Positions 5,638-17,770 are shown, counted from the stretch's first letter. The stretch: DNA of 64,000 nt from an uncultured Bacteroidales bacterium (GCA_964608665.1 CAZSQJ010000011.1:2744-66743), one strand, 5' to 3'. The notes: a model not told the origin generated them from the letters alone. A program made the numbers and translations.

Positions 5638-6834
5638 TCAGCGGCGGGGTTTTCTGAAGGATTGGCCGCTGTGTTTCTTAAAGGGCTCATAGGCAGGAGT
5701 TTCTCCGAAACGGACGGGGACTGCAGCTTTGTAAACCGCTTTGCCCAGGAGTTTTTCAATTTTAGCGAAGTATTGTTGTTCCTGTTGGCCAATGAGGGTC
5801 ATGGCGACTCCTTCGGACTGTGCCCTGGCGGTTCGGCCGATGCGGTGGATATAGTCCTCACCCTCATGTGGCACATCCATATTCACCACCATATCAATAT
5901 CTTCTATATCAATTCCGCGCGACAGCACATTGGTGGCCACCAGCACTTTCAGTGTCCTGTTTTTGAAAGCCATCAGCACTTTCTCCCTCGCCTGCTGGTC
6001 GAGGTCGGAATGGATTTCACCGGCCTGCAGTCCCAGCCGTTTTAATTCACGGGTGAGGGATTTAGCTTTCTCCTTGGTGGAGCAGAATACGAGGATACTT
6101 TTATCCCTTTTTTCTCCGAGCAGGTGCACCAGCAGCGGTATTTTCTGCTTTTCGTTCACTACATAAGCGATCTGGAGGACACGGTCGGCTGCTTTGGCAA
6201 TGGCGATACTGACCTCCAGGGGATTTTTAAGGATTTTTTTGGCCAATTCTCTGATCTCCCTGGGCATGGTTGCCGAGAACATCATGGTTTGCCTGTCTTC
6301 CGGCAGATAGGAAATTATTTTCATGATATCTCCGTAAAATCCCATGTCGAGCATACGGTCGGCCTCATCGAGGATGAGGTATTTCAGGCTTCCGGCCTTC
6401 ACATAATCCATCATCAGGTGGGCGATCATGCGGCCGGGTGTGCAGATCACCACATCGGTACCGCGGGTGAGGGATTCCATTTCGCGGCCGAAGGCAGCCC
6501 CGGCGGTTCCCCCGTAAACGGCAATGGAGCTCAGGTGCGTAAAATAGGACAGGGCGTCCATATGCTGGTCTATCTGCTGGGCGAGCTCGCGGGTAGGCAC
6601 GATGATCAGGCAATGGATATTGCCGGCAACATGGGGTTCGGACAGCATGCGGTGCAATACCGGCAACAAAAAGGCAGCCGTTTTGCCGGTACCGGTCTGT
6701 GCCGAAGCAATCACATCCCGTCCGCCGAGTATGGCCGGGATGGCCTGTTCCTGCACCGGAGTCGGGATTTCATAACCCATGGCGGCAATGCCTTCCATCA
6801 GGGCAGGGGCAAATCCGAATTCGTCGAAAGTCAA
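5638..6834 (-). CDS. DEAD-box RNA helicase (RhlE-like)
   Basis: Q motif PTPVQ, AQTGTGKT, PTRELA, TPGR, DEAD, SAT and HRIGRTAR. TTG start. Confidence 0.95.
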   Translation of the reverse strand: MTFDEFGFAPALMEGIAAMGYEIPTPVQEQAIPAILGGRDVIASAQTGTGKTAAFLLPVLHRMLSEPHVAGNIHCLIIVPTRELAQQIDQHMDALSYFTHLSSIAVYGGTAGAAFGREMESLTRGTDVVICTPGRMIAHLMMDYVKAGSLKYLILDEADRMLDMGFYGDIMKIISYLPEDRQTMMFSATMPREIRELAKKILKNPLEVSIAIAKAADRVLQIAYVVNEKQKIPLLVHLLGEKRDKSILVFCSTKEKAKSLTRELKRLGLQAGEIHSDLDQQAREKVLMAFKNRTLKVLVATNVLSRGIDIEDIDMVVNMDVPHEGEDYIHRIGRTARAQSEGVAMTLIGQQEQQYFAKIEKLLGKAVYKAAVPVRFGETPAYEPFKKHSGQSFRKPRR

Positions 6835-6947: not shown

Positions 6948-7559
6948 ATGAACCACCCGGCCGGTCACAGCGATACGAATCCGGATCTTCCGCTTCGCCA
7001 AAGGACAGATGAAGCGATCTATCAGGGCTATCTTGAAAGCGGAGATCCGGCCATGGCGGAGGAACTGTATAAGCGTTACCTCCACCTGGTGCTGGGCGTT
7101 TGTTATAAATACCTGAAAGACAGGGAAGAAGCCCGTGACGCCTGTATGCAGGTGTTTGAGCAGTTGCTGGTAAAACCGCATCGGACAGCGATCAGGAGTT
7201 TCAGGGACTGGCTGTTTATTATCACCAGGAACCACTGCCTGATGCTGCTGCGGAAAGCCAGTACCAGGGAAAGGTATCTCGGGGCAAGATTTCATGAGTT
7301 GCAGGCTGAAATTATGGAATCTGCTGCCCGCCTGCATCTTTATGATGCAGATGAGCAGGAAAAAAGGCTTTCACTGCTGAGGTCGGCCCTGGCACGCCTG
7401 CCGGATGAACAAAGGACCTGTATTGAATTGTTTTACTATGAAGACCTCTCTTACCAACAGATCAGCGAACAGACGGGATACGGGCTCAAACAGGTGAAGA
7501 GCTGCCTGCAAAACGGCAAAAGGAATTTGAAAATCCTCATGAACCATGGAAAAGCATGA
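6948..7559 (+). CDS. ECF (sigma-70 family) RNA polymerase sigma factor
   Basis: Region 2 (DREEARDACMQVF...FRDWLFIITRNHCL) and region 4 (LPDEQRTCIELFYYEDLSYQQIS...VKSCLQNGKRNLK). Start placed at ATG 6948. Confidence 0.92.
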   Translation: MNHPAGHSDTNPDLPLRQRTDEAIYQGYLESGDPAMAEELYKRYLHLVLGVCYKYLKDREEARDACMQVFEQLLVKPHRTAIRSFRDWLFIITRNHCLMLLRKASTRERYLGARFHELQAEIMESAARLHLYDADEQEKRLSLLRSALARLPDEQRTCIELFYYEDLSYQQISEQTGYGLKQVKSCLQNGKRNLKILMNHGKA

Positions 7560-8691
7560 AAGCGGACCAGATTATTTTTCTCCTTCGGGCTGTCTGACCC
7601 GTGAGGGGATGCAGGCTGTGGTTACGGGGAATCTGGACAGCAGCATGCGGGAACAGGTCGAAAAACATCTTTCGGAATGCGAATTCTGCCGCCTGGCCAT
7701 GGAAGGAACACTTTCGTTTGTTGAAGATCACGGCACAGCCGCCTGGGAACAGGATCTGGCCAGTGCAGACAGCCTGGCAGGAGTACTTGTTCCGGGTGCG
7801 CCTCCTGAAACAGTATCAGTTAGTGGCAAACGGAGGCACAATGTGATCTGGACCAGTGTGGCCGTTGCCGCCACCATTGTGCTCTTTCTGGGTCTTGCCT
7901 ATGTTATCCGTTTGTGGCTGCCAATACAGCCTGAACAGCTTGCACAACAGACCCCGCCGCAAGAAGCAGTCGAAATCCCCCCTCCCGTTATGGAAGATCG
8001 TCAGGAACCGGCAGAGGCAAGGCCTGCAGAACAGGAAGCGCCGGGTCCTGGCCCTGCTGCCGCCACAACTGCCGGCATCCGGGAACACAGGATCCCCGTC
8101 GAGGCTTCCGAACAGGAAACTCCCATTCCTGACACGGTCGCACTGACAACGGATCCGTTGCTTTTCCATAATATTACGGCAAGTCAGGCCCCTCAGGCAA
8201 GCGCCTCATACGGCGGTTTTCAAAACACCGGTTCCGGCACGGCCATGAATACGGTACAGCCGGACCAGGTGGTAATCACTTCTGAATCCAAATCTGTGAG
8301 TCAGGAGCATATCAAGGCTGTTTCAGTCATGGAAAAGAAAGCCCTGAAAGAAGAACAGCTTAGCCAGGATGATGCTCCCGCGGTTTTTTATCTTGTGGAA
8401 GAGATGCCCTCATTCCCAGGCGGGCAGGATTCGTTGCAGGCCTTCCTGAACCGCAATATCCGCTATCCGCTTCAGGCACGGGAAGCAAAACTCAGCGGGA
8501 CCGTCCAGCTGAGTTTTGTGATCGACCGCAAGGGCAGGATCAGGGATATCACTGTTTTAAAAGGTATCGGGATGGCTTGCGATGAAGAAGCCATCAGGGT
8601 GGTGAAAAACATGCCCCGCTGGCACCCAGGAAAACAGGCAGGGAAAACGGTCGATGTCCGTTTCACCCTGCCTGTCCGTTTTGAATTATAA
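7546..8691 (+). CDS. Membrane-anchored zinc-binding anti-sigma factor fused to a periplasmic TonB C-terminal domain
   Basis: ZAS motif HLSECEFC (HxxxCxxC), one TM helix (VIWTSVAVAATIVLFLGLAYV), Pro/Glu/Ala-rich linker, and TonB_C (MPSFPGG...IRYP..ARE....GTVQLSFVIDRKG...LPVRFEL). Start overlaps the sigma stop. Confidence 0.85.
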   Translation: MEKHESGPDYFSPSGCLTREGMQAVVTGNLDSSMREQVEKHLSECEFCRLAMEGTLSFVEDHGTAAWEQDLASADSLAGVLVPGAPPETVSVSGKRRHNVIWTSVAVAATIVLFLGLAYVIRLWLPIQPEQLAQQTPPQEAVEIPPPVMEDRQEPAEARPAEQEAPGPGPAAATTAGIREHRIPVEASEQETPIPDTVALTTDPLLFHNITASQAPQASASYGGFQNTGSGTAMNTVQPDQVVITSESKSVSQEHIKAVSVMEKKALKEEQLSQDDAPAVFYLVEEMPSFPGGQDSLQAFLNRNIRYPLQAREAKLSGTVQLSFVIDRKGRIRDITVLKGIGMACDEEAIRVVKNMPRWHPGKQAGKTVDVRFTLPVRFEL

Positions 8692-8704
8692 ATGCTGTCC
8701 GTGC

Positions 8705-11086
8705 CTAAACTGCCTCAAACCTGACGGGCAGCGTCATCTTCACCCTTAACGGTTTTCCATGTTTCAATGCCGGTTTCCATTTCGGCATTCTTTTCACAAG
8801 TCTTATTGCCTCTTCATCGCATCCGGATCCCAGTCCCTTCTCCACCTTCACCTCACTGAGGCTGCCATCAGCATTCACATAGAAACTGACATAAACCACA
8901 CCTTCCAGCCCCTTCCACCTGGCAGCATCCGGGTATTTCAGGTTGATCCGGAAATATTCCTGCATGGCAGCCTGTCCGCCGGGAAATTCTGGACCATCCT
9001 CACATGTGAAAAGAAAAGAATCTGTTGCTGTTTGAGATTCTTCTTTTACTTCAGCCGTACGCACCTCTCTCTGCACTTGTGTATCCGGGCTTAGCTGCGG
9101 TGCACAATATTTCATATGATTTGTCCCCTGCACAGGAGATGCCGCAGTGCTCTGAACGATACCCATGCCACCACCCACTGCGTAATTACTGACGCCTTCA
9201 GGGAGGGGCAGGGGCTGGGTGACCGTGGTCAGTTGTCCTTCTTTGTTTCTCACCTCACTGTCGATGGCAACAAATGAAGTGAAGCGGGTGAGCAGGTTAT
9301 AACGCAAACCGGTCTCAGTGATCTGCTTAGCCACAGTTTGTTCATCCTGCTGACCCGAGGCAATGCCGTAATCGTCGAGGTAACGGATACGTTCCCTGGC
9401 CCAGAGATACCGCAGGGCAAGGTTATCCCGGCCCGAAGCATCGGCGAGCGGCAGATTTGAATGCCAGGGCCCTTCGCCGTTTGTCCCGTTCAGGGTAATG
9501 GCTGCATGATCCGTCATGTTCCGGTATTTTCCGAAAACCACCACCGGACGTTCGGAGAATACATCCGGGATGCTGAGGGGTTCCACATCATAAGGCTCAA
9601 AACCCTGGTAACTGAGTCTGATTCCCGTCAGCACGGGATGCTGCACATATTCCATAAAGGCGGCAGCCTTATCCTCAGCCTCTTCCCGGCGGGTCACCAC
9701 AAAAGCCTGTCCCATACCGGCATGGGCGATCCCCTCGATCAGGTAACGGTTCACTGCCGATCCGATGCCAAAGGCGAAGAAATTGGCCCTGTTGAGGTTG
9801 TTGCGGATCAGGTTGAAAGCTTCCTTTTCAACGCTGACGTACCCGTCGGTGGCAATCACGAAGGTACGCGACAGATTTTCAGTACCTTCCAGGGCGAGGG
9901 CTTTTTTGAGGGCCGGCAGTAATTCGGTTCCTCCCCCTCCCTGCTGTCTCCCGATGAAAGCCACTGCAGCGGAGATATTGGCGGAAGTAGCCTGCACGGA
10001 AGCAGGGGAATACAAAGCAGAACCACCGGCAAATAAGACTACATTGAAGCGATCTGACGCATTCAGGCTTTTCAGCAGTTTTTCCATCAGTTTTTTTGAA
10101 ATTTCGAGTGGAAAGCCGTGCATGGAACCACTGATATCGACGATGAACACATACTCGCGGGGCGGTACCTGCCGGGCATTCACTGCTGCGGGCGGATACA
10201 CGGCAGCAAGAAAGAAGTTTTCATCTTTCCCTTCGTACCGGAGGACACCGCTTTGCAGGCCGGCACCGCTCAGGCGGTACTGAAGGATGAAATCCCTGTT
10301 TCCTTCCCTGCCGGAAGCATCCTTCAGCCTGAGTTCCGCTTCTGTCCGGCTCTTATAATCCGCATCGATTTTATGGGAGGTACATTTCAGTCCGCTCAGT
10401 GGTACACCGGCATTGATCCTGCAATGGATGCCGAAACTGTAAAAAGGCGCCGTCCCTTCGGTTGTAAAGGGATTGGCAATCCACTGGTCATCGCGGCTGG
10501 CAAGCATTGCAGGCTGATTCGAATACCTGGGTCCCACCACCGTCGGAAACACAAACTCATACAGGCCTTTTTCGGGAATGATCATCTCGGTATAATCCAG
10601 TTCAACCCGGATCTCTTCACCGGGCATGATATTGGCCACATTCATCTGAAAAACATTCGGCCGTTGCTGCTCAAGCAGCGAAGCACCCTGTCCGGCCGAT
10701 TTTGCCTGTTCATATTCCCGGCGCGCTTTTTCCCTTTCCCTGATACCGGCCTCAATGATCCTTTCCCCTATCACCATCCGCATCCCGTGCACAGCCGCCC
10801 TCGTGGAAGCCGGAAAAACGTAAATCGCCTCGATTGCCTGTTTCCCTTCGTTCTTGTAGACCTGCTTCACTTTTACCGCCGCGATCAATCCCAGGATTTG
10901 CACCTCGGCATCCGTGGATTTCAACGGCATCTGCTCTGTCCCGGAATAATCCGACTGAATAAAAAAATAAGGCGACAATGTTTTATCACCCGCACCATCT
11001 GCCGGCTGCACCTTTCCCTGTCCGTATGCGGACATCAGGCTGCACACCAGCAATACCAACACATTCACTTTCAATTTTGTCTTCAT
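8705..11086 (-). CDS. Exported VIT + von Willebrand factor A domain protein with a C-terminal TonB_C domain
   Basis: Signal peptide MKTKLKVNVLVLLVCSLMSAYG, VIT (IEAIYVFP...AAVHGMRMVIGER), VWA MIDAS DISGS...GGT...TDG, LTRFTSFVAID, and C-terminal PEFPGG...LKYP.AAR..GLEGVVYVSFYV...LPVRFE. Confidence 0.85.
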   Translation of the reverse strand: MKTKLKVNVLVLLVCSLMSAYGQGKVQPADGAGDKTLSPYFFIQSDYSGTEQMPLKSTDAEVQILGLIAAVKVKQVYKNEGKQAIEAIYVFPASTRAAVHGMRMVIGERIIEAGIREREKARREYEQAKSAGQGASLLEQQRPNVFQMNVANIMPGEEIRVELDYTEMIIPEKGLYEFVFPTVVGPRYSNQPAMLASRDDQWIANPFTTEGTAPFYSFGIHCRINAGVPLSGLKCTSHKIDADYKSRTEAELRLKDASGREGNRDFILQYRLSGAGLQSGVLRYEGKDENFFLAAVYPPAAVNARQVPPREYVFIVDISGSMHGFPLEISKKLMEKLLKSLNASDRFNVVLFAGGSALYSPASVQATSANISAAVAFIGRQQGGGGTELLPALKKALALEGTENLSRTFVIATDGYVSVEKEAFNLIRNNLNRANFFAFGIGSAVNRYLIEGIAHAGMGQAFVVTRREEAEDKAAAFMEYVQHPVLTGIRLSYQGFEPYDVEPLSIPDVFSERPVVVFGKYRNMTDHAAITLNGTNGEGPWHSNLPLADASGRDNLALRYLWARERIRYLDDYGIASGQQDEQTVAKQITETGLRYNLLTRFTSFVAIDSEVRNKEGQLTTVTQPLPLPEGVSNYAVGGGMGIVQSTAASPVQGTNHMKYCAPQLSPDTQVQREVRTAEVKEESQTATDSFLFTCEDGPEFPGGQAAMQEYFRINLKYPDAARWKGLEGVVYVSFYVNADGSLSEVKVEKGLGSGCDEEAIRLVKRMPKWKPALKHGKPLRVKMTLPVRFEAV

Positions 11087-11295
11087 GGCATTAGATTTTT
11101 TGTGATTAGAATGATTTTCCGCCCCAAAAGGCTTAACATGAAGATGCGGGAAGCTGCTTTTTTCCATAAGGTGCCAGGGAAGGATTGCCGGTTGAATCAA
11201 GGTGCAAGGTTATGGATGTTTCCCTGCACTCTATGAATGCATGATGAATCTCAGGAATAAGGTTCTTTGTATTATCGACTGTAAAATATTAATTT

Positions 11296-11303
11296 TACCT
11301 TTG
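11296..11303 (+). promoter_or_regulatory. -7 promoter element (TACCTTTG) upstream of the mevalonate operon
   Basis: TAnnTTTG match in the AT-rich divergent intergenic region. Confidence 0.5.
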
Positions 11304-11407
11304 GACGAATTCAATATCATGCAATGAGATGATGTTTTGTTTATTAATTTTATATTTTCATTAAACATTATTCAAGCTGAGGCGTTATATCACATAAAAT
11401 ATGCAAA

Positions 11408-12406
11408 ATGGAAACCCGCAAGCATGATCACATTGAGCTGGCATTTTCCTCACGGACGGGAGGAGCACAAGCCGACAGCCGTTTTGATTACGAACCCATG
11501 GCGGGTGTGATTCCTGATCCGGCCTGGGAGCCGTTCAGTTTTCTTGGGAAAACCTTGCGACTTCCCATGTGGGTTTCGAGTATGACGGGAGGCACGGCAC
11601 TTGCAAGGACGATCAACACCAACCTGGCCAGGGCATGCAGGGAGTTCGGTATGGGAATGGGTCTCGGAAGTTGCAGGATATTGCTGCAAGACCGGTCTCA
11701 TCTGCAGGATTTCGATATGAGGGAGATCATCGGGGATGCGCTTCCGCTATACGCCAATATCGGCATTGCCCAACTTGAAGAAATGGCTGCACAGGGAACC
11801 TTTCAGTCGCTCACAGACCTGGTAGGAACCCTGAGGGCCGACGGTCTCATCATCCATGTGAATCCCATGCAGGAATTTTTACAGGAAGAAGGGGACCGGC
11901 TGCGGGTACCGCCACTGGAGACCATAGAAACATTTCTTGATGAGACAGACATAAAGGTGATAATCAAGGAAGTAGGGCAGGGTATGGGGCCGGACAGCAT
12001 CCTGAAAGTCATGCATTTGCCTATTGAAGCATTTGAATTCGGGGCTTTTGGCGGAACGAACTTCAGCAAACTGGAATTGCTCAGGGGTGATCCCGCAAAG
12101 TCGGATCTGTATGAAGCCATGGCCAATACGGGACACACGGCTGCATGGATGCTGAAAGAAGTGAACCGGCTGCATAATGAGGGGCATTATCTGCGTTGCC
12201 GGCAACTGATCATTTCAGGGGGGATCCGGTCTTTTCTCGACGGTTATTACCTGATCTCCAACAGCAAACTGCCGGCTGTCTTTGGTCAGGCCTCGAATTT
12301 CCTTAAATACGCCCGTAACGACTACAACGAACTCAGGCAATTTATTGAAGAACAGATCAGGGGATTGTCATTTGCCAGGGCTTTCCTGGTACCAAAAGCA
12401 TTGTGA
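11408..12406 (+). CDS. fni: Type 2 (FMN-dependent) isopentenyl-diphosphate isomerase
   Basis: RKHDHI, SSMTGG, MGLGS, ANIG, IHVNPMQE, IKEVGQG, GGTNF and SGGIR. Confidence 0.92.
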   Translation: METRKHDHIELAFSSRTGGAQADSRFDYEPMAGVIPDPAWEPFSFLGKTLRLPMWVSSMTGGTALARTINTNLARACREFGMGMGLGSCRILLQDRSHLQDFDMREIIGDALPLYANIGIAQLEEMAAQGTFQSLTDLVGTLRADGLIIHVNPMQEFLQEEGDRLRVPPLETIETFLDETDIKVIIKEVGQGMGPDSILKVMHLPIEAFEFGAFGGTNFSKLELLRGDPAKSDLYEAMANTGHTAAWMLKEVNRLHNEGHYLRCRQLIISGGIRSFLDGYYLISNSKLPAVFGQASNFLKYARNDYNELRQFIEEQIRGLSFARAFLVPKAL

Positions 12407-13710
12407 TGAAAGGGAACATTATCAAGGGGTTTTCCAGGCTCGATGAACAGGAAAAGCGCAGGATGGTTTCCGGGCTTTGCGTGCATCCGGAAGAGGCGGC
12501 CAGAACGATGGAACAGATGCTTTTCACGGATGAGAAGCTTCGTGAGAAGTTCATGGATCTCAGTGAGAACACCATCAGCAGTCATCATCTTCCATACGGT
12601 ATCGCCCCGAATTTTGTAATCAACGGCAACATCTTCCATGTGCCCATGGTGATCGAAGAGAGCTCGGTTATTGCTGCAGCGGCGAGTGCCGCACGTTTCT
12701 GGGCAGAGCGGGGCGGATTCCGCATCACCGACCTGAGTGCCACGAAAGTGGGCCATGTTTATTTCCGCTGGTTCGACAATCCTGCGCTGCTGAAGGAAAA
12801 ATGGACGGTGATCAGGCCACAGTTGTTACACAGGCTGAAGGACTTCACCGCCAACATGGAAAGGCGCGGCGGGGGTGTCAGCAAGCTGGAGCTAATCGAC
12901 GACACCGCCAGGATCGACATGTTGTTCAGGCTGAAAGCTTCCTTCGAAACCGTTGACTCCATGGGAGCCAACTTCATCAATACCTGCCTGGAAGAACTGG
13001 CCAGGGGACTGTCTGAGATGCTGAATGCGGATATGGATGCCGACAGGCAGCCCTGTCAGGTAGTGATGGCCATTCTGAGCAATTACACCGATGAATGTAC
13101 CGTAACAGTGGAGATCGGTTGTGAGAAGAAAGCCCTCAAGGGGATCACGGGAGGCCTCCCGGTGGATGAGTTCACTGACAAAGTGGCGCTTGCCTACGAG
13201 ATCGCATCAAAAGACGTTTACCGGGCCACCACACATAACAAAGGGATCATGAACGGCATCGACGCCGTGCTCATCGCCACCGGAAACGATTTCAGGGCAG
13301 CCGAAGCTGCTGCCCATGCCTATGCAGCCCGGACCGGCAGGTACCAGGCGCTCAGCTGGTGTACCACAGAAGACAATGCATTGTTTATCAGGCTCCGTCT
13401 TCCGCTTTCCGTGGGAACAGTGGGCGGAATCACCAACCTGCATCCACTTGCAAAACTGTCATTGGAGATTCTGGGTAACCCGAATGCCAATGAGTTGATG
13501 GGGATAGTCGCTTCGGTGGGACTGGCCAGCAATTTCGCGGCTGTTCAGAGTCTTGTGACCACAGGCATACAAAAAGGACATATGAAGCTGCACCTGACCA
13601 ATATCCTCAATATTCTGAATGCGAATCCGCAGCAAAGAACCGAAGCCCTTGCACACTTCGAGGGAAAGACAGTCAGTTTTGCCGCCGTGAAAACGTTTCT
13701 GAATGTCTGA
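12406..13710 (+). CDS. mvaA: Class II HMG-CoA reductase
   Basis: EN motif (SENTIS), PMVIEESSV, DSMGAN, THNKGIMNGIDAV, GTVGG and GIQKGHMKLH. Confidence 0.92.
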   Translation: MKGNIIKGFSRLDEQEKRRMVSGLCVHPEEAARTMEQMLFTDEKLREKFMDLSENTISSHHLPYGIAPNFVINGNIFHVPMVIEESSVIAAAASAARFWAERGGFRITDLSATKVGHVYFRWFDNPALLKEKWTVIRPQLLHRLKDFTANMERRGGGVSKLELIDDTARIDMLFRLKASFETVDSMGANFINTCLEELARGLSEMLNADMDADRQPCQVVMAILSNYTDECTVTVEIGCEKKALKGITGGLPVDEFTDKVALAYEIASKDVYRATTHNKGIMNGIDAVLIATGNDFRAAEAAAHAYAARTGRYQALSWCTTEDNALFIRLRLPLSVGTVGGITNLHPLAKLSLEILGNPNANELMGIVASVGLASNFAAVQSLVTTGIQKGHMKLHLTNILNILNANPQQRTEALAHFEGKTVSFAAVKTFLNV

Positions 13711-14620
13711 ATCCACAACATACCAGGCAAACGGCAAGCTGCTGATCAGCGGGGAGTACCTGGTGCTTCACGGGGCGCTTTCCTTTGCACTGCCGCTCAG
13801 GTTCGGGCAACAGATGCAAATCAGCACTGCCGCGGGACCGCTGATCCGCTGGACCAGCTCCGATCCTCACGGAACATGGTACCGGGCAGAATTCAGTCTT
13901 CCCGGTCCTGTAAAGGAGAACCTCAGCAGGGAAGACCGTTTCATCATGCGCCTGCTGGAAGCTGCCGGAGGGCTGAACCCGGATTTTGCAGCAAGGATTC
14001 AGGGCACGGAAGTGACCGTTGATGCCAATTATCCGGTGCAATGGGGACTTGGCAGCAGCTCCACCCTGATCTACCTGGTTGCCTGCTGGGCCGGCATCAA
14101 TCCGTTTCGCCTGTTCCATATGGTTTCAAGAGGTTCAGGCTATGATCTTGCCTGTGCCGGGAGATCCAATCCGCTGCTTTATTCGCGTAAGGGAGAAGCG
14201 ATCATGATCCGGGATATCGCAGCCGGAAGGGCCGTTCGCCAAAATGCCCTTTTCGCCTGGCTTGGGAACAAACAATCCTCCGATACAGAGGTTGACCGCT
14301 TTCTGGTGGAAGCCAGTCCCTCTCCCACCGACATTGCCCTGATGGATTTGCTCACACTGAAGATTGCCACCGCGGATAGGGCAGAGGAGTTGCAGGAACA
14401 TATGTTGCGGCATGAATCATTGCTTGCGCGTATCCTGCAACGTGAACCGCTCTCGGCCAGGCTCAGTGATTTTCCGGGAACTGTCAAATCGCTTGGTGCC
14501 TGGGGAGGAGATTTTGCCATGTTTGTCACAGATCAGCCAAAAGAAGCCGTGCTGCCCTGGTTCACAGAAAAAGGGATTTTTCCGGTATTCACTTTCGACG
14601 AAATCATTGCACAGAAATGA
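13703..14620 (+). CDS. GHMP kinase of the GYDIA-type family, probable phosphomevalonate kinase
   Basis: GKLLISGEYLVL, WGLGSSST, GSGYDLAC and KSLGAWGGDF; lies inside the mevalonate operon. Confidence 0.8.
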   Translation: MSESTTYQANGKLLISGEYLVLHGALSFALPLRFGQQMQISTAAGPLIRWTSSDPHGTWYRAEFSLPGPVKENLSREDRFIMRLLEAAGGLNPDFAARIQGTEVTVDANYPVQWGLGSSSTLIYLVACWAGINPFRLFHMVSRGSGYDLACAGRSNPLLYSRKGEAIMIRDIAAGRAVRQNALFAWLGNKQSSDTEVDRFLVEASPSPTDIALMDLLTLKIATADRAEELQEHMLRHESLLARILQREPLSARLSDFPGTVKSLGAWGGDFAMFVTDQPKEAVLPWFTEKGIFPVFTFDEIIAQK

Positions 14621-15714
14621 CGGCATCACCACTTCGCATATATCAAAGCAAAACAGGCTGGATGCATGATGCCGGGCCCCTGTCGGCGGCCTGGGAATCA
14701 CCTTCCAACATTGCTCTGATCAAATACTGGGGAAAAAAGCCGGGACAGATCCCGGCCAATGCATCCCTGAGCCTGACGCTTTCAAAAGCCAGGACTATCA
14801 CACGGATGACAGCCACTGCAGACATGCATCATCCCGGGATAAGGACGGTAAACGGGGAAGCGGAACATCCGTTCCGGCACAAACTGGATCAGCTGCTGGA
14901 AAAACTCGCCGGGGAAATCCCCCTGTTGAAGACCCTCAGCCTTGATATTGAAACAGAAAACAGCTTTCCCCACTCGGCAGGGATTGCCTCATCAGCTTCC
15001 GGCATCAGCGCCTTTATCCTTTGTCTGCTTGAAATTACGGGGGAATACCTTGGGCTCAGTCCTGAGCATGAGACCTTTTTCAGGGCTGCCTCCTATGCTT
15101 CCCGCATTGGATCGGGCAGTGCATGCAGATCGGTTTACGGCGGCCTTACTGTCTGGGGAAGGCATCCGGCCATCGAAGGGTCTTCGGATTTTTTCGCTAT
15201 CCCTGCCGGCGATGTGGCACATGCACGTGCAGAGGACTGGTGCGACACCATCCTGGTGGTTTCCTCCAGACCCAAGTCACTGGCCAGCAGCCTGGGACAT
15301 CACCTGATGACAGGACATCCCTTTGAGCAGGGTAGGTACCTTCAGGCTGGCCAAAACCTGGAAGCACTGCTTGAAGCCATGCAGCAAAATCAATTTGAAC
15401 GCATTGCCGCGATCACCGAGTGCGAGGCGCTCAGCCTGCACGGCCTGCTGATGACATCTCATGAACAGGGACTGTTGTTGCTGCCCGGAAGCATTGAGAT
15501 CGTGCACCGTATCCGCCAGGCAAGGAAAGAAGGATTACCCGTGTTTTTCACCATAGACGCGGGTCCAAACATTCATCTCCTTTATCCGGCAACGGCAAAG
15601 CAAGCAGTAGCAGGCTTCTGCCGTGACCGGCTTCTTGAATTCTGTGAAAACAATTACCATATTGATGACCACGGAGGTTCCGGTCCGCGCAGCCTCCGGC
15701 AAAAACCAGCCTAA
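14617..15714 (+). CDS. mvaD: Diphosphomevalonate decarboxylase
   Basis: PSNIALIKYWGK, NSFPHSAGIASSASG, RIGSGSACRS and FTIDAGPNIH. Confidence 0.93.
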   Translation: MTASPLRIYQSKTGWMHDAGPLSAAWESPSNIALIKYWGKKPGQIPANASLSLTLSKARTITRMTATADMHHPGIRTVNGEAEHPFRHKLDQLLEKLAGEIPLLKTLSLDIETENSFPHSAGIASSASGISAFILCLLEITGEYLGLSPEHETFFRAASYASRIGSGSACRSVYGGLTVWGRHPAIEGSSDFFAIPAGDVAHARAEDWCDTILVVSSRPKSLASSLGHHLMTGHPFEQGRYLQAGQNLEALLEAMQQNQFERIAAITECEALSLHGLLMTSHEQGLLLLPGSIEIVHRIRQARKEGLPVFFTIDAGPNIHLLYPATAKQAVAGFCRDRLLEFCENNYHIDDHGGSGPRSLRQKPA

Positions 15715-15716
15715 AT

Positions 15717-16676
15717 ATGCTAACACAGGAGCATTTCTACTCAAAACTCTTGCTCTTCGGAGAGTACTCCATTCTGTTCGGATCTTCGGCGCTGAGTATC
15801 CCTTACAGCCAGTTCCAGGCCGAATTGAGTTTTATCCGCGACGACAAATACACCGCCCTCGATAAAGCAAGGCACAGCAATTCCCTGATGAAGGAATTCC
15901 TGGCCTACCTTGGGAATGACTGGCCCGAAGCCGGGAACCACCTTGATCTTGCAAGGTTCCGCTACGACCTTGCCGAAGGTTTGTACCTTGAATCGACCAT
16001 TCCGCAGGGTTACGGACTGGGATCTTCCGGAGCGCTTTGTGCCGCAGTGTACCACAGGTACACCCTTCACAAAACAGGGGTTTCCATTCCGACTCCCGCC
16101 ATGATCAACGAATTGCGGAGCATTTTCGCAAAGATGGAGTCTTTTTTCCATGGCCGGAGTTCAGGCATCGATCCCCTGGCCATTTACCTGAAGTCGCCAC
16201 TGTATGTCAATCCTGACGGAAAGCCGGAGATCGTAGGTATTCCCAGAAACTGGAACGACAAGCCCAGCGGCATTTTCCTGATAGACACCGGGCATTCAGG
16301 AAAAACCAGCAGTTTTGTGCCGGATTATCTGAAACTCTTTGCCCCGGAGGGCAGGCTATCGGAAACGGGAGCACAACTGGTACATCTGAACAACCTTGCC
16401 ATCGAAAGCCTGCTGACTGCTGAAATGCAGACATTCTGGAAAACCCTATCCGCACTGTCGGCTTTCCAGTTCAGTCACATGCAGAGCGTGATCCCCCGCA
16501 GCATGGACAACTGCTGGCAGGAAGGCCTGGCTTCCGGGGATTACAGTATGAAGATCTGCGGATCGGGAGGCGGCGGGTTTCTCACGGGATTTGCCCCCGA
16601 TTACAACAAAGCCCGCATACACCTGAAATCCTCCGGAATCCGGACGATCCCGGTATTTTTGGCAGGCCAGGATTAA
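15717..16676 (+). CDS. mvk: Mevalonate kinase
   Basis: SKLLLFGEYS, IPQGYGLGSSGA, FHGRSSGIDP and KICGSGGGG. Confidence 0.88.
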   Translation: MLTQEHFYSKLLLFGEYSILFGSSALSIPYSQFQAELSFIRDDKYTALDKARHSNSLMKEFLAYLGNDWPEAGNHLDLARFRYDLAEGLYLESTIPQGYGLGSSGALCAAVYHRYTLHKTGVSIPTPAMINELRSIFAKMESFFHGRSSGIDPLAIYLKSPLYVNPDGKPEIVGIPRNWNDKPSGIFLIDTGHSGKTSSFVPDYLKLFAPEGRLSETGAQLVHLNNLAIESLLTAEMQTFWKTLSALSAFQFSHMQSVIPRSMDNCWQEGLASGDYSMKICGSGGGGFLTGFAPDYNKARIHLKSSGIRTIPVFLAGQD

Positions 16677-16696: not shown

Positions 16697-17770
16697 ATGC
16701 GGATCATTCCCTTCCTTATTCAGAGCTTGTTGCTGCTGGCAGGCACACTGGCCGGTGCCCAGGTCCCTCCGGGTTATTACGATCCCGCTGCAGGCCTCAC
16801 AGGGCAGGCCTTGCTGAATGCCCTTCATTCGATCATAGACGATCACACCCAGGTGTCTTACGGCAATTTATACACGCATTTCGCCGGTACCGACAGGAAA
16901 CCCGACAACAGCGTATGGGATATGTATTCCGACCTTCCTTCCGGGCTGCCTCCATACATATATTATTATAATTCGGGGGATGAGTGCGGCAATTACACTG
17001 CCGAAGGGGACTGTTACAACAGGGAGCACAGCTGGCCCAAAAGCTGGTTTGGAGGTGACATCTACCCCATGTACTCCGACCTTTTCCACCTGTATCCGAC
17101 GGACGGTTATGTAAACAACAAGCGTGGCAACCTGCCGTACGGAACGGTTTCAAATCCTGACTGGACATCGCTTAACGGAAGCAAGGTGGGCCCGTGCAAC
17201 GCTTCCGGCTATGGGGGTGATGTGTTTGAACCTATCAACGCCTATAAGGGAGACTTTGCCAGAACGTATTTTTATATGTCGGTGCGTTATTCCGGAGAAG
17301 ATGCTTCCTGGCCCGGAAGCGACATGACCCAGGGTGCCCAGCTCAAGGCATGGGCACTGAACCTGCTGATGCAGTGGCACGCCCAGGATCCCGTTTCGCA
17401 AAAGGAAACCGACAGAAACAATACCGTTTACCTTATCCAGCAAAACAGAAATCCGTTTATCGACAATCCGGCCTATGCAGACCTGATCTGGGGGCCTGCA
17501 GGCATTGCAACACATCTGGACGTTGCCAGTCTCAGGCTGTTTCCAAACCCGGTCACTTCCATGTGCCACATCGTGGTTCAATCTCACAATAATCAGGAAA
17601 TCCGCGGTTTAGATCTTACGGATGCCTGCGGTCGAATTCTTATTGCCTGTCATCAGGAAGGGAATATCCCACGGGAAATCTCCCTCGATAATCTTGAAAA
17701 CGGACTTTACCTCGTCAGGGTGACTTTAGATCACGGCCAGTACCTGTACGGAAAAATCGTGAAAGAATAA
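16697..17770 (+). CDS. Secreted endonuclease I family nuclease with a T9SS C-terminal sorting domain
   Basis: Signal peptide, NREHSWPKSW, SDLFHLYPTD, NNKRGNLPY, KGDFAR, RNPFIDNP, and CTD LFPNPV...GLYLVRV......KIVKE. Confidence 0.88.
   Translation: MRIIPFLIQSLLLLAGTLAGAQVPPGYYDPAAGLTGQALLNALHSIIDDHTQVSYGNLYTHFAGTDRKPDNSVWDMYSDLPSGLPPYIYYYNSGDECGNYTAEGDCYNREHSWPKSWFGGDIYPMYSDLFHLYPTDGYVNNKRGNLPYGTVSNPDWTSLNGSKVGPCNASGYGGDVFEPINAYKGDFARTYFYMSVRYSGEDASWPGSDMTQGAQLKAWALNLLMQWHAQDPVSQKETDRNNTVYLIQQNRNPFIDNPAYADLIWGPAGIATHLDVASLRLFPNPVTSMCHIVVQSHNNQEIRGLDLTDACGRILIACHQEGNIPREISLDNLENGLYLVRVTLDHGQYLYGKIVKE

Follow-up and report, generated by a model that had tools for sequence, protein, structure and literature searches.

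The closest described relatives of the locus analysed here belong to ECF255, a group of extracytoplasmic function (ECF) sigma factors of which 98% are from Bacteroidetes and whose +1 gene encodes an anti-sigma factor with one transmembrane (TM) helix, a TonB_C domain and a CarboxypepD_reg-like domain, the last of these being usual and not universal (Casas-Pastor et al. 2021, NAR 49:986). The group description (bioRxiv 10.1101/2019.12.11.873521) further states that the -1 gene usually codes for a VWA protein, soluble or secreted, that also has DUF3520 and a CarboxypepD_reg-like domain, that the promoter is TATGGAT (-35) / GCATCT (-10), and that the sigma factor has an N-terminal extension, a pair of cysteines in region 2 and a single one in region 4; contact with the Ton box of a transporter was already proposed there by Casas-Pastor et al. 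as the sensing route. No experimental study of ECF255 was found in the literature searched. The locus in question occupies positions 6,948 to 11,086 of a 64,000-nucleotide stretch of DNA from an uncultured Bacteroidales bacterium (GCA_964608665.1 CAZSQJ010000011.1:2744-66743; this whole stretch is called the window below), and in it the genes for an ECF sigma factor and a TonB_C-bearing anti-sigma factor face a gene for an exported VIT-VWA-TonB_C protein (the VIT gene and VIT protein below). We read the three genes as an ECF255-type envelope signalling circuit of Bacteroidota, and give this reading as a whole, including its wiring, its Ton-box input and its VIT output, a probability of about 0.45. 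The wiring taken by itself, in which the sigma factor would act on the VIT gene and on the anti-sigma gene, is well supported in silico and probably correct. The in silico basis consists of the architecture of the proteins, the conserved linkage of their genes, the promoter elements and selection at the DNA level; from these we infer sigma dependence in vivo, a docking partner, a release step and competition at the docking site. The genes and the two promoter-like elements are laid out as follows:

6948-7559, + strand: ECF sigma factor by Pfam and TIGRFAM, ECF255-like by group features, 203 amino acids (aa)
7313-7339, + strand: TATGGAA-N14-GCATCT, a promoter-like element within the coding part of the sigma gene; the anti-sigma ATG follows 207 nt downstream
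7546-8691, + strand: single-pass anti-sigma factor of predicted zinc type with a periplasmic TonB_C domain, 381 aa
8692-8704: 13-bp gap between the convergent stop codons
8705-11086, - strand: exported VIT-VWA-TonB_C protein, 793 aa
11142-11168, - strand: TATGGAA-N14-GCATCT, a promoter-like element with its end 56 nt before the start codon of the VIT gene (ATG, 11086)

At one mismatch or fewer the sequence TATGGAA-N14-GCATCT is present at exactly two sites in the window (11168-11142 on the - strand and 7313-7339 on the + strand), and the first of these is predicted to be an ECF255-type target promoter of the VIT gene. The sample in which the motif was followed came from two sources: a scan by VIT alignment, in which one genome was taken per species and 80 loci were kept, and a scan of metagenomes by sigma alignment, which gave 80 further loci. 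In 2.0 Mb of sequence (164 loci) there are 163 matches at this threshold, compared with 3-8 in shuffled sequence. Seventy-five matches lie outside sigma genes, mostly on the sense strand and 30-170 nt upstream of gene starts, and the genes behind them encode VIT proteins, a short TonB in one operon with a VIT protein, YfbK-type VWA proteins (CarbopepD-VWA-YfbK_C), alpha-2-macroglobulin-like (A2M-like) proteins and CarbopepD-Plug proteins; in three loci (L003, L006 and L009) the motif precedes a VIT gene that has no sigma gene within 10 kb. The initial annotation had supposed the VIT gene to be sigma-dependent, and in silico the answer is positive, with the group's predicted motif 56 nt before the VIT ATG and before the genes of relatives as well. 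The longest open reading frame (ORF) of the VIT gene begins with a TTG at 11200, but the promoter-like element sits within the extension that this would add (11087-11200), so the real start is probably the ATG at 11086, as had been assumed before.

The same motif is absent upstream of the sigma gene of the window at two mismatches or fewer, and it is found upstream of the sigma gene in the sigma gene's own direction in only 4 of about 96 loci; the idea that it is the promoter of the sigma gene itself was rejected on these two counts. Scans for sigma-70-type promoters and for terminators gave results at chance level. Two sister loci (L092:236-4717 and L121:3405-7865) have the motif before A2M-like proteins of about 1490 aa that are paired with zf-HC2/TPR anti-sigma factors, and a third (L101:192-944) has it before a 250-aa CarbopepD_reg-Plug protein that resembles the N-terminus of a transporter without the barrel.

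The second site in the window lies inside the sigma gene, where its codons read I-M-E-S-A-A-R-L-H-L and encode the linker between sigma regions 2 and 4. The element is present in 88 of 96 sigma orthologues (from loci L001-L164), in every case in the region 2-region 4 linker and with few exceptions in the sense orientation, but is it the protein or the DNA that is conserved there? We examined this in a codon alignment of the 96 orthologues, which were picked by patterns elsewhere in the protein so that the comparison is not circular, and obtained the following values:

codon before the ATG/GTG: 11 different amino acids, third base T in 95%
Glu codon: GAA in 88/88, compared with 67% GAA elsewhere in these genes
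codon before the His codon: 15 different amino acids, third base G in 82%
His codon: CAT in 88/88, compared with 60% CAT elsewhere in these genes

Third-position information is 0.41 bits on average over the gene and 1.15-1.83 bits at the positions of the internal element. Because synonymous positions are fixed while the amino acids vary, selection at this place acts on the DNA and not on the protein, and the simplest reading of the element is that of a predicted sigma-dependent promoter inside the sigma gene. The sigma factor of the window has no in-frame Met after the element until its last residues, so the anti-sigma factor would be the sole complete ORF on a transcript that starts there, and the circuit would induce its inhibitor but not the sigma factor itself.

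Are the VIT gene and the sigma/anti-sigma pair related, or do they merely lie side by side? The convergent neighbour at a distance of 13 bp that the initial annotation described is there, and its supposition that the two architectures go together in other genomes also holds: of about 38 Bacteroidota-type loci, 13-14 place a sigma orthologue (38-46% identity) with a TonB_C anti-sigma factor next to the VIT gene, as do 2 further close relatives. This linkage spans three gene orders and at least 15 species, namely a divergent order (L001, L002, L007, L010, L013, L019, L022, L023, L027, L028, L029, L036, L164 and the P0031 locus), the convergent order of the window and L081-83, and an order in which the sigma pair is about 4.5 kb upstream of the VIT gene (L008); in L014 a truncated sigma gene lies about 9 kb from the VIT gene, at the edge of the locus. 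The 43 loci of other types have no sigma pair, save a mis-binned, truncated Bacteroidota locus (L036), and the linkage is significant by Fisher's test (p=1.6e-4). In almost all linked loci, unlike the convergent window, the sigma pair is divergent from and upstream of the VIT gene; this order is likewise found in the two nearest relatives past the 84%-identical strain (VIT identity 59% and 53%). In the window and the 84% relative (L081) the two blocks are swapped yet still touch. Nine linked loci have a gene for a membrane-anchored TonB of 222-256 aa in between, in one operon with the VIT gene. An adjacency that has been kept through three arrangements is, we think, good evidence of a functional link, though not of an obligatory one. 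Chance adjacency, in which the VIT gene would have nothing to do with the pair, could draw on the fact that about half of the VIT-VWA-TonB_C loci are without the pair and on the convergent orientation in the window, but the neighbourhood is kept in three gene orders and in many species and a specific promoter motif is common to both parts, and this explanation, already disfavoured, is hardly credible. Around the 13-bp gap the convergent TonB_C coding ends form an inverted repeat (8578-8615 / 8784-8821; 38 nt, 79% complementary), which might be a recombination substrate or a hairpin at the transcript ends.

The sigma factor has regions 2 and 4 alone (Pfam Sigma70_r2 6.9e-11 and Sigma70_r4_2 1.2e-11; TIGR02937 6.8e-24), with an extended N-terminus of 37 residues before region 2. 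Region 2 contains Cys52 and Cys97, region 4 contains Cys158, and among 14 orthologues C97 and C158 are invariant and C52 is nearly so; the C-terminal motif VKSxxQNGKRNLK is also conserved. The nearest relatives are metagenome-assembled genomes of Bacteroidales and Lentimicrobiaceae. The assignment to an ECF group that the initial annotation had asked for can be made from these features, since the phylum, the +1 TonB_C anti-sigma factor, the motif, the cysteines and the N-terminus all fit the description of ECF255. In the loci from the sigma scan the +1 gene mostly encodes a TonB_C anti-sigma factor, and the divergent neighbour often encodes a canonical CarbopepD_reg-vWF_A-VWA-YfbK_C protein (L108, L126, L136, L140 and L162); CarbopepD_reg is present in 4/5 anti-sigma factors beside CarbopepD_reg-VWA-YfbK_C partners, and other relatives pair a zf-HC2/TPR anti-sigma factor with an A2M-like protein.

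The anti-sigma ORF starts 14 nt before the end of the sigma gene, and its product is divided as follows:

aa 10-81, + strand: anti-sigma domain, with predicted zinc-binding anti-sigma (ZAS) ligands at nt 7591-7593 and 7666-7689
aa 97-124, nt 7834-7917, + strand: TM helix
aa 125-275, nt 7918-8370, + strand: disordered linker
aa 304-381, nt 8455-8688, + strand: TonB_C domain (Pfam 2.6e-20)

The residues C16...H41-x3-C45-x2-C48 are invariant across 8 homologues and fit the ZAS class I pattern, and by this ligand pattern the domain is of the ZAS type, with zinc binding predicted; in Pfam the window protein does not reach E<=0.01 for zf-HC2, and some of its orthologues do. An AlphaFold2 model gives high confidence to an N-terminal helical bundle (helices of aa 19-81 at pLDDT 84-90) and to the TonB_C domain; between them lie the TM helix and a disordered stretch of about 150 residues. 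Thus the zinc-type anti-sigma factor ending in TonB_C, as it was first annotated, is borne out by its Cys and His ligands, its one TM helix and its Pfam match. A weak match to GltJ (E 0.0012) falls within the low-complexity linker. Pfam finds no FecR or DUF4974 domain in the window anti-sigma factor, and a CarboxypepD_reg-like domain is absent from it and from all 16/16 VIT-linked orthologues; all 16/16 VIT-linked anti-sigma factors bear TonB_C only.

The VIT protein, in the order of its own - strand gene, is built as follows:

aa 1-22, nt 11021-11086, - strand: signal peptide (AYG|Q)
nt 10592-10924, - strand: VIT domain (3e-36)
nt 9683-10150, - strand: VWA domain (VWA_3 4.4e-17), with the DxSxS of its metal ion-dependent adhesion site (MIDAS) at nt 10124-10138
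aa 614-695, nt 9002-9247, - strand: disordered tether
aa 715-791, nt 8714-8944, - strand: TonB_C domain (3.4e-19)

The MIDAS residues D317-x-S319-x-S321, T387 and D414 are invariant in 15 homologues, and no hydrophobic segment was found in the protein beyond the signal peptide, so that the earlier description of an exported protein with an intact MIDAS and no evident membrane anchor stands. The family is large (at least 8000 matches), and the best 120 of these all share one Pfam set; they come from Bacteroidales, Lentimicrobiaceae and Cytophagales, where they bear the name "TonB family protein". We know of no function for bacterial VIT-VWA proteins. Among solved structures, those nearest to the VIT-VWA core are PARP4 (1e-33), ITIH4 (1e-22) and ITIH1, and the cores of eukaryotic ITIH1/4 and PARP4 are homologous to that of the window protein. 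A homologous core with a MIDAS is likewise found in the marine proteobacterial sortase targets of TIGR03788, which the window protein matches at 441.4 bits over aa 57-661, below the cut-off of 551.65; those proteins carry a C-terminal LPXTG sortase signal, whereas the window protein has TonB_C on a flexible tether. Homologues from Desulfobacterota, Acidobacteriota and other phyla have an AgmX/PglI-type C-terminus (NF033768 up to 1.4e-26), and a first impression that these homologues are without TonB_C was rejected, because this type of end passes the Pfam TonB_C threshold. Such AgmX/PglI (GltG/GltJ-like) tails, with two conserved Cys, were seen in the VIT genes of L015, L016, L021, L024, L026, L031-L034, L039, L041 and others. 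Their occurrence in several phyla indicates that the joining of VIT-VWA to a TonB-like tail is a cross-phylum fusion. The C-terminal domains of Myxococcus GltG/GltJ and of AgmX/PglI are related to TonB_C, and a domain of this kind ends the VIT-VWA homologues of Desulfobacterota, Acidobacteriota and other phyla, but the VIT protein of the window has a canonical Bacteroidota TonB_C and no gliding genes around it. To judge from these comparisons, VIT-VWA proteins keep their core and exchange their C-terminus, in the manner of a module for anchoring or docking.

The two TonB_C domains of the window end in LPVRFEL (anti-sigma factor) and LPVRFEAV (VIT protein), a similarity on which the initial annotation had put weight, but is it greater than would be seen for any two such domains? 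The domains are 48% identical to each other, whereas that of the anti-sigma factor is 55-61% identical to those of ordinary Bacteroidota TonB proteins of 220-230 aa. The similarity is therefore present, but it is at the generic level of Bacteroidota TonB_C domains, and a special likeness of the two was rejected. Over the sample, the VIT C-terminus of the same locus is among the top 3 of 13-14 matches for 8/14 anti-sigma factors. Two loci go further: in L013 the linker and TonB_C of the anti-sigma factor (8228-9172) and of the VIT protein (9914-12115) are 84% identical over 80 aa, and in L002 the corresponding proteins (7592-8842 and 10420-12765) have the segment V(I/T)(T/S)AYKVP(L/M)EK(K/R)STG in common, and both cases look like intra-locus gene conversion of the C-terminal modules. 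In both sub-branches, with VIT and with YfbK-type partners, the anti-sigma factor and its VWA-type partner have the same type of docking domain. Sensor and output may thus target one kind of site, or each other, as is suggested by the common domain type, by the matched C-termini within loci and by the short TonB that many loci put under this promoter.

The second of these possibilities would be a product feedback, in which the anti-sigma TonB_C binds the VIT protein itself (as a TonB_C-TonB_C heterodimer or through a strand of the tether) and the level or state of the VIT protein sets sigma activity. The unusual likeness of C-terminal modules within loci, partly homogenised in L013 and L002, and the one domain type of anti-sigma factor and target in both sub-branches speak for it, and the C-terminal domain of E. 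coli TonB is able to dimerise when isolated. But the linkers hold no conserved interaction strand, the motif also precedes VIT genes far from any sigma gene, and the sister systems with TPR anti-sigma factors and A2M-like targets have no domain in common, and we regard such a feedback as rather improbable.

The circuit that we propose would instead work as follows: The sigma factor would be held at the inner membrane by the zinc-type anti-sigma factor, whose periplasmic part is TonB-like, with a flexible linker of about 150 residues and then TonB_C. This TonB_C domain would dock by beta-strand pairing on a Ton-box-like segment, most likely of an outer-membrane TonB-dependent transporter, and altered docking would release the sigma factor. 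Free sigma factor would read TATGGAA-N14-GCATCT at its two sites, the VIT promoter and the internal promoter of the anti-sigma gene, so that activation would re-arm its own inhibitor, a negative feedback without visible positive autoregulation. The induced VIT-VWA protein would be a MIDAS-bearing binding protein on an 80-residue tether, and its own TonB_C domain would take it to docking sites like those of the sensor; there it would act and might compete with the sensor. In a more specific version the circuit would be a homeostat for Ton-box sites, in which the anti-sigma factor as sensor, the VIT protein as effector or decoy and often a membrane TonB paralogue compete for Ton boxes and the sigma factor induces the VIT protein, the paralogue and its own inhibitor; this version is attractive but, in our estimate, unlikely to be correct in full.

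The anti-sigma factor might itself be a working TonB paralogue, which would couple to ExbBD so that a force cycle on a ligand-loaded transporter frees the sigma factor. It has the topology of a TonB, with a TM helix, a linker that is long and flexible and a complete TonB_C that includes the YP motif, and 9 related loci have a co-regulated short TonB; yet neither a His nor an SHLS-like motif is present in its TM helix (the need for such a motif is not established for Bacteroidota TonBs), its cytoplasmic N-terminus is an anti-sigma domain of 80 residues and there is no exbBD in the neighbourhood, all of which makes this version very unlikely.

A different view of the same parts is that TonB_C is a passive tether to the outer membrane or peptidoglycan, that loss of the tether upon damage leads to proteolysis of the anti-sigma factor, and that the output is a capture or repair protein. 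This would account for the A2M-like and YfbK-type VWA proteins that sister loci put behind the same promoter, for a VIT-VWA core whose closest solved relatives are ITIH4, ITIH1 and PARP4, for a C-terminus that is swapped like an anchoring module (a sortase anchor in marine proteobacteria, an AgmX/PglI-type end elsewhere) and for the housekeeping and envelope genes next to the cluster. However, no site-1 or site-2 protease gene is linked to it, our analysis gave no sign of peptidoglycan binding or proteolysis, and the membrane-anchored short TonB under the same promoter in some clusters points to a Ton function and not to a mere tether; an envelope-integrity sensor of this kind seems to us an unlikely explanation.

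Several observations weigh against the circuit as we have drawn it. TonB_C domains have an established role in beta-strand pairing with Ton boxes, and docking of Ton boxes at this locus would follow from that role by homology only. The TonB_C domains of anti-sigma factors, VIT proteins and short TonBs were not found to form class-specific clades, and the excess likeness of C-terminal modules from the same locus is modest. No TonB-dependent transporter or exbBD gene lies next to the cluster in the window, and a search of the 64 kb (tblastn; Pfam on large ORFs) found no further TonB_C, exbBD or transporter; the neighbours of the cluster are housekeeping or envelope genes. The linker of the window anti-sigma factor holds DQVVITSE and its L002 counterpart VITAYKVPLEKKSTGYAV, but a conserved mimic of a Ton box or plug start was rejected, since these segments vary among loci and the strands are predicted to be disordered. 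Among the Bacteroidota VIT-VWA-TonB_C loci whose flanks are long enough, about half have no such sigma gene within 10 kb and no motif nearby, which indicates that the VIT protein does not depend on the circuit. The match of the window to a sub-branch of ECF255 was made by features and not by the hidden Markov model (HMM) of the group. Finally, three short contigs from two metatranscriptomes all lie over the anti-sigma gene (7471-7977 and 8353-8508), which is compatible with the internal-promoter model but far too sparse to count, and no RNA run matching the VIT gene was found.

Other genes in the window were noted in passing. A DEAD-box RNA helicase gene at 5638-6834 (- strand) is a recurrent immediate neighbour of the sigma family in loci that are distant from one another, also in L164, L022, L103, L109, L114, L142 and L163. 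A contiguous mevalonate-pathway cluster at 11408-16676, conserved in the 84% relative (L081), comprises genes for a type-2 IPP isomerase, an HMG-CoA reductase, a GHMP-kinase-like protein, a diphosphomevalonate decarboxylase and a further kinase. The product of an endonuclease I gene at 16697-17770 (+ strand) has at its C-terminus a sorting domain for type IX secretion (Por_Secre_tail), which implies that the organism has a type IX secretion system. Rfam and tRNA scans gave no match.

With these elements ECF255, a phylum-wide group of Bacteroidota, gains a testable regulon (a VIT-VWA-TonB_C or YfbK-type VWA protein, a short TonB, an A2M-like protein and the anti-sigma factor) and an unusual wiring in which a promoter is embedded in the sigma gene, and the bacterial VIT-VWA proteins, homologues of ITIH and PARP4, gain a first regulatory handle. 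If TonB_C is the sensor, the input route to these ECF sigma factors would be distinct from FecR-type signalling, and if the homeostat were true, TonB_C would be a new class of ECF input domain and the embedded promoter a group-wide design with negative feedback only. For experimental work on this unstudied signalling family of Bacteroidota the trio offers a good place to start, although it is not a new category.

How, then, does the locus compare with known systems? It resembles ECF255, as far as the available parts of the group description go, in having an ECF sigma factor in Bacteroidetes, a +1 TonB_C anti-sigma factor with one TM helix, the motif, the 2+1 cysteines and the extended N-terminus. 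It differs from that description in that its anti-sigma factor is of predicted zinc type and has no CarboxypepD_reg domain. In the neighbouring secreted VWA protein the likeness is partial, since the partner here is a VIT-VWA-TonB_C protein encoded convergently downstream, whereas the CarbopepD_reg-VWA-DUF3520/YfbK_C protein of the group sits at -1. Those parts do not mention that the motif stands in front of the partner gene and within the sigma gene but only rarely upstream of the latter. The window trio is accordingly not a new kind of system, as the pairing of a TonB_C anti-sigma factor with a VWA protein and the Ton-box idea were already published there as a hypothesis; to this we add a predicted regulon, a putative promoter that lies embedded in the sigma gene, a co-variation between the domains of sensor and output and the linkage in three gene orders. 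FecI/FecR/FecA-type signalling (ECF239/240/243 and relatives) likewise joins an ECF sigma factor to a single-pass anti-sigma factor, with a presumed contact between the periplasmic end of the latter and a TonB-dependent transporter, but the window has no FecR/DUF4974 domain, no adjacent transporter with a signalling domain and no transporter in the operon, and the contact would be with the Ton box itself. In rpoE-rseABC of E. coli a sigma-E-dependent rseA promoter inside rpoE raises expression of the anti-sigma factor, and the window is similar in that a predicted sigma-dependent promoter inside the sigma gene would feed the anti-sigma gene; it differs in that no sigma-dependent promoter is seen before the sigma gene (4 of about 96 loci) and in that the internal element is conserved group-wide at synonymous sites.

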